A DNA stretch of 4,290 nt. Source: a virus. Taxonomy: Duplodnaviria; Heunggongvirae; Uroviricota; Caudoviricetes. Each line of letters begins with the position of its first letter. Position 1 is the first letter of the stretch. A program made the position numbers and the translations under genes. Under the pieces are notes generated by a model, which was given only the letters and a program-made list of their open reading frames with translations, searched no databases and was not told the DNA's origin. The stretch spans positions 1-4,290 of the IMG/VR virus record IMGVR_UViG_2740892230_000030. One strand, written 5' to 3'. Below, in pieces: positions 1 to 4,290 of this stretch.

Positions 1-333
1 AGGCAGATAGCCTCAAGCACCCGCAGCAATTCTAACTATCCAATAGATCAATGCCAACTTCTTTTCCTGCAACATCTCTCATCATAAGTGACCCAAATTC
101 ATCCAATCAGCACAAAAGAAACATTTAAAGCGTGAATGCTACCGAACGTTCATTTCAATTACATCGTTTTGATTTTTAACAGTTTTCACCTCAACAAATC
201 AAATGGCATTAGCATTCATCATGGAAGAAAGACTGATAAAAATGATCATTTTCAATGACTTATGATCACACCGGGTATTGCCAAGTCATTCCTTTTACGC
301 CAGGATACCCACAAGTGAGTAGTCGAGGAGAGT

Positions 334-362
334 TTGCCAATTTTTGCGATATAAATTTCAAT
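334..362 (+). promoter_or_regulatory. Putative sigma70-like promoter for the 410..1507 CDS (TTGCCA at 334-339, 17-nt spacer, TTCAAT at 357-362)
   Basis: Read directly: -35-like hexamer with one mismatch to TTGACA, 17-nt spacer, -10-like hexamer matching TATAAT at 4 of 6 positions, about 50 nt upstream of the ATG. Weak -10; a guess only. Confidence 0.2.
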
Positions 363-409
363 GTCCGAAGAACCATTAATTGTTAATTGATTCTGTATAA
401 GGTATTAAC

Positions 410-1507
410 ATGACAATTTCATATATTCCTATTCTGAAAGCGAAACGTTCTGAGTTATCAGCTTTATCGCAGCTATCCATTGAAAAGAAATCAAAAATTT
501 TGCCATTACTCGAAATTGAACCAGTGCCAATTGACCCTGATTCAGGTATTGCCTTAAAGAGTTATAACGAGACTCTTATAGAGTTCGGAAAGAAAGTCTC
601 AAAATCTTGCTCAGATATGCAAGGTGTTTATATTGATGGATTATTAATTGAAGAGCATTTTATTTCTCCTGAAGATCATTACCCTATAATAAATGCGGTT
701 AATCAAGTTAGAGATATGGGGATAAGAGTTATTCCTGTCAGTTCACCAACTCGCCCATCTAACTATAAAAGAGCGATTGATGAATTAATGCAGAATGAAA
801 TATGCTTGAGATTAACCACGTTAGATCTGGTTAACCCACAATTAATAACGCATTACATTAATCATCTGGGAATTCCTTTATCAAATATTGATATAATTAT
901 TGACTTAAGAGATGAGTTAACCGAGGATAAAATTAATTCCGGCGAACTATATACTTTGGCAATGGGATTGATAAACAATCTGGCGCACCTCAATGAATAC
1001 AGAAAAGTGATTCTTTCTGGGGGTTCATTTCCTACAGATCTCAGTGATATTTCTGTTGGTCTATATTCTCAACCTCGAATCGAGTGGATTTTATGGCAGA
1101 GTTTAATGAATAGAAAAGAACTTGCCAGAAATGTGATTTATAGTGATTATGGAGTACAGCACCCCGACTTTAATAGGCTTTCGACGCGATTCCCTAGCGT
1201 ATCTGCCAGCGTCAGATACTCTGGAGATAATGACTTTTGGGTATTTCGAGGAAGAGTAGCTAATCGCTTTGGTTATGAACAATATGGTAAACATAGTGAG
1301 GATATTCTTGCTCATCGAGAATATTCAGGGCCTACATTCTGTGCGGGAGATAGAGACATAGAATATTATGCAAACGAGTATCAAGCCTACAAAGCCAATC
1401 CCTCTGGTAACTATAAATTTGGTAGCCCAGAGGTATGGCGTAGGATTGGGCAAAACCATCACATAACTAAGGTTGTTGAGCAACTCGCCACTCTTTACGG
1501 GCTTTAA
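410..1507 (+). CDS. 365-aa protein, putative 'beta protein' / sce7725-like family member (assignment from memory, unverified)
   Basis: Track ORF of 365 aa. ATG at 410 is preceded by AAGG (399-402) with a 7-nt spacer. The AT-rich composition is uniform across the ORF and no competing long ORF exists. The N-terminal motif YIPILKAKRSELSAL matches what I recall as the conserved N-terminus of the 'beta protein' family. High confidence that it is coding, low confidence in the family name. Confidence 0.8.
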   Translation: MTISYIPILKAKRSELSALSQLSIEKKSKILPLLEIEPVPIDPDSGIALKSYNETLIEFGKKVSKSCSDMQGVYIDGLLIEEHFISPEDHYPIINAVNQVRDMGIRVIPVSSPTRPSNYKRAIDELMQNEICLRLTTLDLVNPQLITHYINHLGIPLSNIDIIIDLRDELTEDKINSGELYTLAMGLINNLAHLNEYRKVILSGGSFPTDLSDISVGLYSQPRIEWILWQSLMNRKELARNVIYSDYGVQHPDFNRLSTRFPSVSASVRYSGDNDFWVFRGRVANRFGYEQYGKHSEDILAHREYSGPTFCAGDRDIEYYANEYQAYKANPSGNYKFGSPEVWRRIGQNHHITKVVEQLATLYGL

Positions 1508-2045
1508 GTTTAACTCGAACAGCTTCACGAAGCTCGCCAACATCCATACTATTGGCGAGTTTTGACCATAAGACGCGTTTAGGTTTATTTTTCAAATTCT
1601 GTAGCTCCCCTACATCACTTAATAGGGAAAGCAATTCATCTTTCCAAAGAAGCATTGTTAAGGAAAGTTTGTCCACTTGTGGATTCAACTTGCTAGTTCG
1701 AATTGTTTTTAAATGGATACCTTGCCGTGCACCTTGCGTAACTTGCTTTATCCCCCACCATGATGGAACTATGCTTAAAGCATCATAAAGATGGCAATCA
1801 GAGACAACCAAAGTTACTTTATCCATCACTGATGAGTAATGTTGCACCTGCGCTGGTAATCTGAGCAAGTTATCACTCTTGCTCTTCAACTCATAACCAT
1901 GTATAAGCCCATTGATCACTGCTATATCAGCTCTGCTAGCCCCTAGATTCATCGTAAACTCATCAATGATTAGGGTGTCAGGATCTTTATGATGATCTCT
2001 CAGAATCTTGGCATGCACAGCCTTTCTTACATCAATGTCTCTCAT
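1467..2045 (-). CDS. 192-aa PD-(D/E)xK-type nuclease-fold protein, possible sce7726-like partner of the upstream gene
   Basis: Track ORF of 192 aa. The N-terminal half contains the ordered motif set LIIDEF ... RADIAVI ... GYELKS, i.e. E, then D in a hydrophobic strand, then E-x-K, which is the canonical PD-(D/E)xK nuclease core. The Shine-Dalgarno is weak. It is convergent with the 410..1507 CDS and overlaps its 3' end by 41 nt. Confidence 0.75.
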   Translation of the reverse strand: MRDIDVRKAVHAKILRDHHKDPDTLIIDEFTMNLGASRADIAVINGLIHGYELKSKSDNLLRLPAQVQHYSSVMDKVTLVVSDCHLYDALSIVPSWWGIKQVTQGARQGIHLKTIRTSKLNPQVDKLSLTMLLWKDELLSLLSDVGELQNLKNKPKRVLWSKLANSMDVGELREAVRVKLKARKEWRVAQQP

Positions 2046-2077
2046 ACCATAGTTGCGCTTTCATCGACTCTCTCAAG

Positions 2078-2096
2078 CCATGATTCTATATCATGG
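2078..2096. promoter_or_regulatory. Perfect 7-5-7 inverted repeat (CCATGAT-tctat-ATCATGG), candidate operator upstream of the nuclease-like gene
   Basis: Read directly from the sequence. It lies 33-51 nt upstream of the ATG at 2045 on the minus strand, in the likely promoter region. Function is inferred from position only. Confidence 0.25.
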
Positions 2097-2222
2097 TTCG
2101 CATGAATGCCATTTGATATGACCAGTGGTTAAACATTGCACAGAAAAGTGGATGTGTATTTTAACAAAAGCAATGACGGCTAACCATGTTGGTATGTCGA
2201 TAAAATGTTTCAACGTAAGCAT
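2091..2222 (-). CDS. Possible 43-aa hydrophobic small protein (MLTLKHFIDIPTWLAVIAFVKIHIHF...)
   Basis: Internal ATG (2222..2220) of the 78-aa track ORF, immediately downstream of repeat copy 1. One hydrophobic stretch could be a single transmembrane helix. No strong ribosome-binding site. Speculative. Confidence 0.2.
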   Translation of the reverse strand: MLTLKHFIDIPTWLAVIAFVKIHIHFSVQCLTTGHIKWHSCEP

Positions 2223-2230
2223 TATCTGTT

Positions 2231-2303
2231 CCGCCCTTTCAGACGGTCTCCTGATGTTCTGAGGGTGCAGAATCCCTCCGGTTAAGGATTTAATAAAAAT
2301 CGT
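2231..2303. repeat. Direct repeat, copy 1 of a ~74-bp element (CCGCCCTTTC..GGTTAAGGATTTAATAAAAATCGT)
   Basis: Aligns to 2593..2666 with 3 differences (two substitutions and one 1-nt indel). It abuts the N-run at 2304-2313. Confidence 0.85.
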
Positions 2304-2313
2304 NNNNNNNNNN
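2304..2313. other. Run of 10 N (unresolved sequence)
   Basis: Literal N characters, located at the junction of a repeat and a paralogous gene. Confidence 1.
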
Positions 2314-2585
2314 GCAACCAGACACAAACCGGGCCATCTTCCGTATCATGAATGGAACCAATAAACCAGCCATCGCCCTCTGGTCGTTCCGGTTCCCATG
2401 CAGAAATANNNNNNNNNNTCCTCTTCGTCTTTTATTTCGTGGTATGAGTAATTGCAGTAGTTAAAGAAAATATCTTTAGCTTCATCCTGTATTTCATCTG
2501 GTGTTGCATCATCATCCACTTCGAATTCATCCTCGAAATCTCCACCGGCTATTCCCGTTTCAATAATTATTTTGAATTTTCGCAT
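2314..2585 (-). CDS. Very acidic small protein, paralog 1; interrupted by two N-runs, true length and frame unresolved
   Basis: ATG at 2585 opens a 55-codon highly acidic N-terminus (MRKFKIIIETGIAGGDFEDEFEVDDDATPDEIQDE...). Beyond the N-run at 2409-2418, the segment 2314-2408 encodes ISAWEPERPEGDGWFIGSIHDTEDGPVCVWL, near-identical to the C-terminus of the 2714..3025 protein. The two parts are out of phase across a 10-nt gap, so the N-run length is not real or the gene is disrupted. Confidence 0.5.
2409..2418. other. Run of 10 N (unresolved sequence)
   Basis: Literal N characters inside the acidic paralog 1 gene. Confidence 1.
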
Positions 2586-2592
2586 TTCACTA

Positions 2593-2666
2593 CCGCCCTT
2601 TCGGACGGCCTCCTGATGTTCTGAGGGTGCAGGAATCCCTCCGGTTAAGGATTTAATAAAAATCGT
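2593..2666. repeat. Direct repeat, copy 2 of the ~74-bp element
   Basis: Aligns to 2231..2303. It lies between the stop of the 2714..3025 CDS and the ATG at 2585. Confidence 0.85.
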
Positions 2667-2713
2667 TTCTGATTTAAATCTTCAGTATTTAGTTGTTAGT
2701 CGGTTTATAGCCT

Positions 2714-3025
2714 TTATGCTTCGGCCTTATTTCTCAGCCATACACAAACCGGGCCATCTTCGGTGTCATGTATTGAACCAATAAACCATCCATTGCCCTC
2801 TGGTCGTTCCGGTTCCCATGCAGAAATATCAGCATCACACGCATCAAGGTCAGCACATCCTTCATCTCTGAAGCAGAGGACGTATTGAAGATTATTTTCC
2901 TCCATCCAGGCGTTAAACTCTTCCGTTGAAATATATTCCCGACCGTCACAGAATTTTTCATATTCAGGATGCGTCCAGTAGCCATATTCATCACGTACTA
3001 CTGGTATTTCTTTAATTTCATTCAT
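2714..3025 (-). CDS. 103-aa very acidic small protein, paralog 2; function unknown, DNA-mimic or anti-defence role is speculation
   Basis: Track ORF of 103 aa with no N-run. By hand count about one residue in four is D or E and fewer than one in ten is K or R. The ATG overlaps the stop of the upstream 3018..3272 CDS (ATGAATGA), implying translational coupling. The C-terminal ~31 aa are shared with paralog 1. Confidence 0.7.
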   Translation of the reverse strand: MNEIKEIPVVRDEYGYWTHPEYEKFCDGREYISTEEFNAWMEENNLQYVLCFRDEGCADLDACDADISAWEPERPEGNGWFIGSIHDTEDGPVCVWLRNKAEA

Positions 3026-3272
3026 TTCTGTTCTCCCACGTTTTCAGACTTTCACCACAGAACGGACAAAATGAAACCCGAACTGGTAATTTAGAAAATT
3101 CACCGGAACGCAACATCACAAAATCAGGACCGCGAGTTAAACTCTCATTCCAGATTTTGTATATCAGCAGACCTTTTCGCATCGTGTATTCAGCATCATG
3201 CTCAAGGGATTTTGCCAGGGTCGTACACGGTTCTATCTTGTTGCCATAAACCTGGCATTTTGATTTACCCAC
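3018..3272 (-). CDS. 84-aa small Cys-containing protein (Cys pairs C-x9-C and C-x2-C); possible zinc-ribbon-like protein
   Basis: Track ORF of 84 aa with a GTG start preceded by AGGAGG at about 7 nt. The start overlaps the stop of the methyltransferase-like CDS (GTGGGTAA). The first 21 aa (MGKSKCQVYGNKIEPCTTLAK) are duplicated at 3784..3846. Confidence 0.6.
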   Translation of the reverse strand: MGKSKCQVYGNKIEPCTTLAKSLEHDAEYTMRKGLLIYKIWNESLTRGPDFVMLRSGEFSKLPVRVSFCPFCGESLKTWENRNE

Positions 3273-3753
3273 TGGTCGCCTCCTTCACAAAAATAATCCA
3301 ATGTGTTTTATCGTTCTTACCGGTGCGCTGGCTGATGATTGGTTTCGCGTCGGTTAGTGCCAATATCTGGCGGACAGATATTTGCGTTTCATTCCATTTA
3401 AAAATCAGAACGCCATGTGGCCACAACACACGAAAAGCTTCTTTAAATCCCTGCCGCAAATCATCACGCCAGGTATCTTTATTCAACCGTCCATATTTCT
3501 TTCCCATCCAGGCTTTATCACCAACACACTCAAGATGCGGAGGGTCGAATACAACAACCGGAAACGATGCGTCTGCAAATGGTAATGCTCGAAAATCTGC
3601 TATCAGGTCAGGACTGATAATCAGGCGTCGTCCATCACACAATGTGTGCTCTTCTTTTCTGATATCGCTAAATATCGCCCGGTCGTCATTCTTATCGAAC
3701 CAGAACATACGGCTGCCACAGCACATATCAAGAATGGTTGCCGGTGCACTCAC
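3265..3753 (-). CDS. Small (~162 aa) SAM-dependent methyltransferase-like protein, amino-methyltransferase type, with no visible restriction partner
   Basis: Motifs in Rossmann-methyltransferase order: ILDMCCGS (motif I-like), AIFSDIR (acidic motif II-like), VVVFDPPH (motif IV, DPPY-like). The likely start is GTG at 3753, preceded by AGGAGG with a 7-nt spacer. The 193-aa track ORF 3265..3846 fuses this gene to an upstream small ORF across an N-run and should not be taken literally. Confidence 0.7.
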   Translation of the reverse strand: MSAPATILDMCCGSRMFWFDKNDDRAIFSDIRKEEHTLCDGRRLIISPDLIADFRALPFADASFPVVVFDPPHLECVGDKAWMGKKYGRLNKDTWRDDLRQGFKEAFRVLWPHGVLIFKWNETQISVRQILALTDAKPIISQRTGKNDKTHWIIFVKEATSG

Positions 3754-3773
3754 TGCGCTACCTCCTGAAAATT

Positions 3774-3783
3774 NNNNNNNNNN
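3774..3783. other. Run of 10 N (unresolved sequence)
   Basis: Literal N characters between the small-ORF paralog and the methyltransferase-like gene start. Confidence 1.
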
Positions 3784-3846
3784 CTTTGCCAGTGCTGCAC
3801 ATGGTTCTATCTTGTTGCCATTAACCTGGCATTTTGATTCACTCAC
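3784..3846 (-). CDS. 5' fragment (21 codons) of a paralog of the 84-aa Cys-containing protein; 3' part lost in the N-run
   Basis: GTG start at 3846 overlaps the stop of the upstream 55-codon-unit gene. The encoded MSESKCQVNGNKIEPCAALAK matches the N-terminus of the 3018..3272 protein at 17 of 21 positions. Confidence 0.45.
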
Positions 3847-4031
3847 CGCACCACCTCCTCAAAATTCCCCTGATAAAACGCCAGTACGCGCTGCATAACT
3901 TCGCTCTTCCGGCACTCGAGACAGATTATGTTCAGACGCCTGTCGTAGCGGCGTATTTCGCCATCTGGTAATGACCAGATAAGGTCCGGATCAACCGCAG
4001 ATGGTTTCTTCAGCTTTGCCCTTGAGAGTTT
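3843..4031 (-). CDS. Small protein, repeat unit B (…KLSRAKLKKPSAVDPDLIWSLPDGEIRRYDRRLNIICLECRKSEVMQRVLAFYQGNFEEVVR*); 5' end lies in the N-run
   Basis: My own translation of the minus strand from 4031 gives 62 codons then TGA at 3845..3843. No start codon is visible because the 5' end abuts the N-run at 4032-4041. Function unknown. Confidence 0.45.
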   Translation of the reverse strand, partial: KLSRAKLKKPSAVDPDLIWSLPDGEIRRYDRRLNIICLECRKSEVMQRVLAFYQGNFEEVVR

Positions 4032-4041
4032 NNNNNNNNNN
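4032..4041. other. Run of 10 N (unresolved sequence)
   Basis: Literal N characters exactly at the junction of the two 165-bp tandem units. Confidence 1.
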
Positions 4042-4206
4042 ACCCTGATAAAACGACAATATGCGCTGCATAACTTCGCTCTTCCGGCACTCGCGACAGA
4101 TTATGTTCTGACGCCTGTCGTAGCGACGTATTTCTCCGTCAGGTAATAGCCAGATAAGGTCCGGATCAACCACAGATGGTTTCTTCAGCTTTGCCCTTGA
4201 GAGTTT
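4042..4206 (-). CDS. Repeat unit A coding segment (KLSRAKLKKPSVVDPDLIWLLPDGEIRRYDRRQNIICRECRKSEVMQRILSFYQG), bounded on both sides by N-runs
   Basis: Open frame of 55 codons, paralogous to unit B. Start and stop are not visible. Confidence 0.4.
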
Positions 4207-4216
4207 NNNNNNNNNN
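4207..4216. other. Run of 10 N (unresolved sequence)
   Basis: Literal N characters upstream of repeat unit A. Confidence 1.
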
Positions 4217-4290
4217 TTTACGAGCCTGTTCAGACGGGAATAACCCGTAGCCAGAATTGTATACATCGCCACTGGCAACCAGCTCTCTGG
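4217..4290 (-). CDS. Possible 3' portion of a minus-strand gene that begins beyond the window edge (…PESWLPVAMYTILATGYSRLNRLV…)
   Basis: The frame is open from the window edge to the N-run. The track ORF starts at TTG 4278, but the frame is also open upstream of it. Identity unknown. Confidence 0.25.

Follow-up and report, generated by a model that had tools for sequence, protein, structure and literature searches.

A 162-residue orphan methyltransferase with an invariant DPPH motif in a Rac-like lambdoid prophage: a probable phage DNA amino-methyltransferase

What does a methyltransferase of only 162 amino acids (aa) modify, when it is encoded by a temperate phage, stands without a restriction endonuclease and reads DPPH in motif IV? 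The question is raised by a gene on the minus strand of the IMG/VR virus record IMGVR_UViG_2740892230_000030, of which we analysed positions 1 to 4,290; this whole stretch of 4,290 nucleotides (nt) is called the window in the following. We consider it moderately likely that the product is a stand-alone (orphan) phage DNA amino-methyltransferase with an anti-restriction function, whereby its substrate, target base, timing and protective effect are what we infer. The gene and the parts of its product on which the argument depends are the following, all on the minus strand:

3265–3753, minus strand: coding sequence of a minimal S-adenosylmethionine (SAM)-dependent methyltransferase of 162 aa, supported by 100% nucleotide identity to the coding sequence of Escherichia coli 55989, by PHROG 954 and PDLC03288, and by the ratio of non-synonymous to synonymous substitution rates (dN/dS)
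3754–3766, minus strand: ribosome-binding region with AGGAGG at 3766–3761, 7 nt 5' of the GTG start and inside the 3' end of the DUF977 gene
3712–3735, minus strand: motif I, ILDMCCGS, aa 7–14, the putative SAM-binding loop after strand 1, with D9 invariant and C12 and G13 at least 90% conserved
3658–3666, minus strand: motif II, D30-I-R32, at the end of strand 2, with D30 and R32 invariant in the family
3535–3546, minus strand: motif IV, D70-P71-P72-H73, immediately following strand 4 and invariant at each of its four positions in an alignment of 51 sequences
3364–3636, minus strand: block of aa 40–130, aligned by hhalign to the catalytic half, i.e. the N-terminal one, of the beta-class DNA amino-methyltransferases

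The open reading frame extends from a GTG start (3753–3751) to a TAA stop (3267–3265). Its DNA matches that of a gene annotated in E. coli 55989 (EC55989_RS05345; NC_011748.1, 1104222–1104710) with 100% identity, the exact protein is on record as CAU96898.1 in the cluster of WP_001275729.1, and pairwise dN/dS values of 0.10–0.16 against E. coli-type alleles reveal purifying selection. This is a real and intact gene under selection, not a chance frame. A preliminary description, made from the letters of the window, had given the coordinates and the length of about 162 aa correctly, but it had made the true start dependent on filling the run of ten Ns at 3774–3783. This dependence does not hold. 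In E. coli 55989 an in-frame TAA lies 21 nt 5' of the GTG, which together with the AGGAGG and the overlap of the DUF977 stop codon (TGA, 3752–3750) with the start codon in the sequence GTGA settles the start without filling the run; the frame had been listed up to 3846 because the Ns mask this TAA.

The same description had named ILDMCCGS, an acidic motif II and DPPH, and all three are indeed present in the translation, which furthermore reads FSDIR (including D30), ADFRALPF and VVFDPPH. In the alignment of 51 family members, which takes in several phyla, the residues D9, D30, R32, P48, D70, P71, P72, H73, L90, E105, R108, L110, K119, W120 and P138 are invariant, and D53 of motif III is almost invariant. 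Motif I has the acidic and glycine residues typical of class I methyltransferases (LDMCCGS, D30), with a single Gly instead of GxGxG. Measured against the strict pattern (D/N/S)PP(Y/F/W), the residues D70-P71-P72 are invariant and correctly placed, while position 4, the invariant His, departs from this pattern. This His had been regarded as atypical and possibly harmful to activity. Since it is invariant in the 51 sequences and DPPH occurs in 255 of the 267 retrieved family members, DPPH is better understood as a family hallmark under selection than as a lesion. Because His is aromatic, the chemistry of amino-methyltransferases may be kept.

The fold predicted by AlphaFold2 with the family alignment is a confident single domain, with a predicted local distance difference test score (pLDDT) of 92.9 and a predicted template modelling score (pTM) of 0.88. 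The model has the strand order of class I methyltransferases and the seven-stranded sheet common to solved SAM methyltransferases, and it places DPPH immediately after strand 4. No helix is modelled ahead of residue 82; the helices that follow motifs I–III are replaced by loops and a beta-hairpin (aa 34–46), including the conserved CCGSRMFWFD. The protein is thus modelled as one reduced class I methyltransferase domain without a recognition domain, which agrees with the early remark that a protein of this length leaves little room for target recognition. If the loss of helices is true, one face of the sheet would be bare and might serve for dimerisation or substrate binding.

A reduced domain of this kind could also bind SAM without transferring its methyl group, either because it is catalytically dead or because it acts as a SAM sponge against restriction or bacteriophage exclusion (BREX)-type systems, or as a structural or regulatory protein. 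Such a role could be suspected from the His at a position that is occupied by Tyr, Phe or Trp in every well-studied amino-methyltransferase, from the one Gly in motif I and from the helix after motif I that is absent from the model. Against it, D9, D30, D53 and D70-P71-P72-H73 are invariant or nearly so under strong purifying selection, His as an aromatic residue is able to stack on a base, and the phage SAM-depleting enzymes known to us have other folds. It could further be objected that the E. coli methylome papers assign no methylation motif to the family (PMC4659465, PMC6602927). However, motifs missing from the methylomes of lysogens are uninformative, because prophage methylases are generally silent there (PMC4659465, PMC8597746). 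Altogether, we regard a non-catalytic binder as very unlikely.

Evidence on the class of substrate comes from profile searches. The protein belongs to a family that is already catalogued as PHROG 954, as PDLC03288 and PDLC03730 in PADLOC and as WP_001275729.1 in RefSeq. PHROG 954, named DNA methyltransferase, was matched at an expectation value (E) of 5e-86 over aa 5–160, and the PADLOC profiles were matched over their full length (MTase_II, PDLC03288, 2e-71; orphan MTase, PDLC03730, 6e-49). In Pfam and NCBIfam, the window protein obtained sub-threshold matches to the generic profiles Methyltransf_11, Methyltransf_25 and PRK14968. It has no match to PF01555 (N6_N4_Mtase), whose gathering score is not reached. 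Among the 51 aligned members, 15 weakly match Pfam N6_N4_Mtase (best E 1e-3) and 24 weakly match NCBIfam PRK11524, the YhdJ family of adenine-specific DNA methyltransferases (best 1.2e-7), but only two weakly match Cons_hypoth95. The family profile was then compared by hhalign with proteins of known or predicted substrate, including enzymes for ribosomal RNA (rRNA) and transfer RNA (tRNA), which gave the following values:

E. coli YhdJ, DNA N6-methyladenine (m6A), beta class: 93%, E 3.4e-7, aa 40–130 against YhdJ 12–96
348-aa methylase of the same prophage, DNA, beta class: 91.8%
Phage SpSL1 cds16, DNA (predicted), beta class: 72–86%
RsmD, rRNA N2-methylguanosine (m2G): 1.5%
TrmN6, tRNA m6A: 1.2%
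PrmC, protein glutamine: 0.4%
Dam, DNA m6A, alpha class: 0.3%

The classification into DNA N6-adenine/N4-cytosine or rRNA methyltransferases, which had been proposed as a check, hence comes out on the side of the DNA amino-methyltransferases by PHROG 954, PADLOC and hhalign. The shared block extends from the strand before motif IV through the DPP-aromatic motif and the KYG..L..W segment to the RVLxPxG strand, and in the window protein it contains the motif III-like DFRALPF, DPPH, KYGxL..W, FRVLxPxG and FKW. For the first 45 aa, the best match was the motif I position of YhdJ (214–225), which is not significant (E 0.08). The simplest reading of these alignments is that the protein would be a circularly permuted relative of the beta-class DNA amino-methylases without a recognition domain.

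The family may instead methylate RNA, i.e. tRNA or rRNA as Trm11, RsmC, RsmD and TrmN6 do, or a host protein, in the service of host takeover or anti-defence. One RefSeq record names the gene a TRM11 family methyltransferase, a recognition domain is absent, and the conservation across phyla is unusually high, as would be the case with a universally conserved target. The profile comparison argues in the other direction, with 92–93% for two beta-class DNA methylases against the values for RsmD, TrmN6 and PrmC given above. Moreover, the protein has no THUMP, PUA or other RNA-binding domain, the extensions of longer members are non-recurrent, and in the three distant phages examined the gene lies in the DNA replication/recombination module. 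Trm11, RsmC, RsmD and TrmN6 are accordingly set apart on three counts: they have no profile relationship to the family, the window protein is a single domain without an RNA-binding part, and its gene is phage-borne. We judge an RNA or protein target to be unlikely.

Nevertheless, several observations weigh against a DNA substrate and should be stated together. The names given in PHROGs and PADLOC are catalogue labels, not experiments, and the window protein reaches no curated threshold of Pfam or NCBIfam. The likeness to beta-class DNA methylases is limited to the half of the protein with motifs IV–VI. A core of 155 residues without a recognition domain, and with helices A–C missing from the model, is an unusual body for base flipping in duplex DNA. 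Among solved structures, those nearest to the model in Foldseek are generic methyltransferases of small molecules and RNA, with template modelling (TM) scores of 0.5–0.6, and M.TaqI appears only at rank 24. The identity of 45–60% between the E. coli protein and those of phages of Gram-positive hosts also fits a universally conserved target other than DNA. Finally, our literature search found no demonstrated activity for any family member, only the name 'class I SAM-dependent methyltransferase'. When the solved structures were searched by sequence, the single methyltransferase sequence gave no match and the family profile gave weak generic matches only.

These observations leave room for a bolder proposal, which we think rather unlikely. 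The protein could be the smallest self-sufficient DNA methyltransferase known, a permuted beta-class relative that uses His for stacking, has little or no sequence preference and perhaps acts on single-stranded or replicating DNA; or its target could instead be a universally conserved RNA or protein of the host. The first of these readings would explain why the protein has hardly changed between phages of hosts as different as E. coli, Streptococcus and Gordonia.

The family is very large. One search gave 7819 homologues, and an exhaustive search gave 1990 clusters at 50% identity; the temperate phages that carry members have hosts among the Proteobacteria, Firmicutes, Actinobacteria and Bacteroidetes. 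The gene is present in 254 phage records, which include phages of Streptococcus, Listeria (A118 ORF50), Enterococcus, Staphylococcus and Lactobacillus, as well as of Gordonia, Corynebacterium, Vibrio, Acinetobacter, Pseudomonas and Porphyromonas; the proteins of these phages share 45–60% identity with that of E. coli. Three distant phages were examined, and each has the gene in its early replication/recombination module, close to RecT, SSB, RusA or genes for replication. No published account of a DPPH motif IV or of this methyltransferase family was found in the literature searched.

The unit of function is the core of 155 residues alone. Extra domains in longer homologues were considered, but the N- and C-terminal extensions do not recur (one each of DnaB_C, ASCH, DUF6291, Ead_Ea22 and Polysacc_synt) and look like fusions with neighbours or miscalled starts. 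A recurrent form of 248–251 aa was noticed in Enterobacterales (Leclercia, Citrobacter, Klebsiella; P0013, P0038, P0099 and others), in which the methyltransferase core is followed by about 90 unrelated residues, ending ...HHQRRLKHHINRMWLEKMP..., and which is probably a fusion with the downstream gene. A few other members (P0092, P0130, P0138) are fused to unrelated zinc-ribbon segments.

The genomic location was evaluated with two complete genomes. The block 2420–3773, which includes the methyltransferase gene, is colinear with E. coli 55989 and the isolate AF39. On the transcribed strand the order is cro, YdaT, replication genes, DUF1627 (in 55989 only), DUF977, the methyltransferase, an 84-aa gene, a 103-aa gene, more small genes, hokD, DUF968, RusA and the Q antiterminator, and past Q a 348-aa DNA methylase, tRNA genes and late genes. 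The methyltransferase is thus located in the early-right operon of a Rac-like lambdoid prophage, in the counterpart of the lambda nin region, and the supposition that it belongs to a mobile element was correct. The same is true for the absence of a visible restriction partner: no restriction endonuclease is annotated within 9 kb of the methyltransferase in the two complete genomes. The immediate neighbours in the window are the following:

3750–3773, minus strand: 3'-terminal 24 nt of the DUF977 (LygF-like) gene that lies upstream, truncated by the run of Ns at 3774–3783
3018–3272, minus strand: downstream gene for an 84-aa, Cys-rich, zinc-ribbon-like protein of unknown function, PHROG 4030
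2714–3025, minus strand: downstream gene for a 103-aa protein of unknown function, PHROG 1372

The GTG start of the 84-aa gene overlaps the stop of the methyltransferase by 8 nt, and the 84-aa and 103-aa genes are joined by ATGA, in which the stop of the former overlaps the start of the latter. With the GTGA overlap on the DUF977 side, the methyltransferase is translationally coupled to both of its neighbours. Inside the string of small genes, no promoter or terminator was convincing, and the surroundings of the methyltransferase have no Rfam family and, in the nearby intergenic region, no significant fold.

The Cys pattern of the 84-aa protein is C-x9-C ... CPFC. Since Bud23, Trm11 and Trm9 are among the structural matches, the idea arose of a partner that supplies recognition, be it DUF977, the 84-aa protein or a Trm112-like activator. 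As a general rule this idea had to be rejected. At about 80 related methyltransferase loci the immediate neighbours are mutually unrelated, no consistent pairing with an 84-aa zinc-ribbon-like protein appeared across these loci, and small Cys-rich proteins make up only 11 of approximately 145 neighbours of family loci. DUF977 and the 84-aa gene are also paired where the methyltransferase is missing, which counts against the partner idea as well. In the O103 strain ML775 (retrieved locus L086, 7655–8328), DUF977 is followed directly by the 84-aa gene. The window itself holds such an arrangement at 3784–4031, where a second allele of the 84-aa gene begins, immediately preceded by the 3' end of a DUF977 gene; 3784–3846 is a fragment of an allele of this kind. 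Because syntenic prophages join these two genes directly, the methyltransferase gene is to be seen as a presence/absence cassette between them; it is present in 873 of 5426 complete E. coli genomes (16%).

The cassette character also bears on the question whether the enzyme is an epigenetic regulator of phage or host in the manner of Dam or CcrM, acting on lysis-lysogeny timing, replication or host expression, and not an anti-restriction factor. Orphan methylases near replication genes invite this thought, and with a larger second DNA methylase in the same prophage, a second protective one might seem redundant. Yet, an accessory gene found in 16% of E. coli genomes with freely varying neighbours fits a built-in regulator less well, and several methylases per phage are frequent, with two in phage SpSL1 as an example (PMC6755750). 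We therefore hold regulation to be quite improbable as the function. The second methylase of the 55989 prophage is a beta-class enzyme of 348 aa (L001, 1949–2998, minus strand), which adjoins the tRNA genes downstream of Q. It may be the counterpart of the non-specific M.EcoGII type in the related O104:H4 strain.

Returning to the orphan DNA amino-methyltransferase with an anti-restriction function, the following course of action can be proposed. The gene, which lies after the replication genes and before the Q antiterminator, would be transcribed from the rightward early promoter together with the other delayed-early genes. Given this location in the early-right operon, it should be silent in the lysogen and expressed after induction or infection, so that the methyltransferase would be made during phage DNA replication. 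SAM would be bound through motifs I–III (D9, D30, D53). The D-P-P-H loop that follows strand 4 would hold the exocyclic amino group that receives the methyl group, with the His ring in the stacking role that Tyr, Phe or Trp plays elsewhere. Both N6-methyladenine and N4-methylcytosine are possible products, because the beta class includes both kinds of enzyme. A short or relaxed target sequence might be expected, since there is no recognition domain. The methyl mark on progeny DNA could then protect it from at least one host restriction system at the next infection. Such a course would agree with reports that orphan methylases of prophages are commonly silent in lysogens and are presumed to protect the element (PMC4659465, PMC8597746).

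How does this proposal relate to known systems? From the PHROG 954/PADLOC family, the window gene does not differ at all, given full-length matches and the same position in prophages. With the beta-class enzymes (PF01555; YhdJ, CcrM, M.RsrI and M.PvuII type) it shares a homologous block of motifs IV–VI and, judged by its motifs, the chemistry of amino-methyltransferases. The order of parts is different: beta-class enzymes have motifs IV–VIII, then the recognition domain, then motifs X and I–III, whereas in the window protein motif I (aa 7–14) precedes motif IV (aa 70–73). The window protein moreover has no recognition domain, has His for Tyr, is about half the size and falls short of PF01555.

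The Hia5/Hin1523/Nme1821 group (PMC3299994) and the M.EcoGII type are likewise orphan amino-methyltransferases of prophages in which a recognition domain is missing or poorly defined, and they are thought to protect phage DNA broadly. These enzymes have about 300–350 aa, carry DPPY before FxGxG (i.e. in beta order) and are active on nearly all adenines; Hia5 and Hin1523, as recognition-poor methylases, act nearly without sequence preference (PMC3299994). The window protein has 162 aa and its DPPH stands after motif I, and non-specificity is here only a possibility.

Another small enzyme is M.NgoMXV of Neisseria gonorrhoeae, which is cited as an 'unusual' gamma-class N4-cytosine methylase (PMC3874165), and whose close homologues were called 'remarkably rare' (preprint 10.1101/2019.12.17.880476), unlike the very common family of the window protein. 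Compared by description only, M.NgoMXV (GenBank AJ004687) resembles the window protein as an amino-methyltransferase of small size whose motif I precedes motif IV; it acts on the N4 of cytosine and recognises GCCHR. It is also said to be atypical in motif IV and to lack a separate recognition domain, which we take as a lead only. Two further candidates were set aside. Phage SpSL1 cds16, which is predicted to be an adenine methylase but for which no activity was detected (PMC6755750), was rejected as a family member because it is a beta-class enzyme by profile comparison, and M.EcoGIX is plasmid-borne in an unrelated context (PMC7736820).

Some features of the window concern its assembly and its other genes. 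Five runs of ten Ns interrupt it (2304–2313, 2410–2419, 3774–3783, 4032–4041 and 4207–4216), and several pieces are near-duplicates of each other: 3868–4041 and 4043–4216 (93%), 2315–2408 and 2735–2828 (91%), 2231–2299 and 2593–2661, and 3211–3272 and 3785–3846 (87%). The window hence appears to be a scaffold joining alleles of several related prophages, and adjacency across the runs of Ns should not be trusted. Its first part (1–2303) has 99.8–100% identity among the matches listed first in complete genomes, e.g. of an O103 strain. This part contains a convergent gene pair, 410–1507 on the plus and 1467–2045 on the minus strand, with an overlap of 41 nt. One gene of the pair matches Beta_protein (PF14350, 3.8e-52) and PADLOC PD-Lambda-2_C (1.8e-41), the other the sce7726 family (NF033832, 1.7e-56) and PADLOC 'cll' (2.4e-28). 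The pair, which in Rac-like prophages lies between hokD and the string of small genes, looks like a candidate prophage-borne anti-phage defence cassette. At one edge of the window (1–22, minus strand), a segment of the sok antisense RNA from the hok/sok toxin-antitoxin was matched weakly (RF01794, 20.2 bits, E 0.19); the match covers model positions 1–22 of 157 and is cut by the window end. This match is consistent with the complete genomes, since hokD lies there just past the window end.

Generally, the window gene is an ordinary accessory gene that is already known, as the exact protein is in RefSeq and its family is in PHROGs and PADLOC. Taken by itself, it is one more orphan methylase in the nin-like region of a Rac-type prophage. 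What makes it worth attention is a very common, pan-phylum core of 155 residues with an invariant DPPH, for which no published activity was found in the literature searched. If it is an active DNA methylase, it would define the minimum protein for base-flipping methylation and could provide a compact methylation tool. Moreover, its target would help to explain which restriction systems are evaded by lambdoid phages and by many temperate phages of Gram-positive bacteria.

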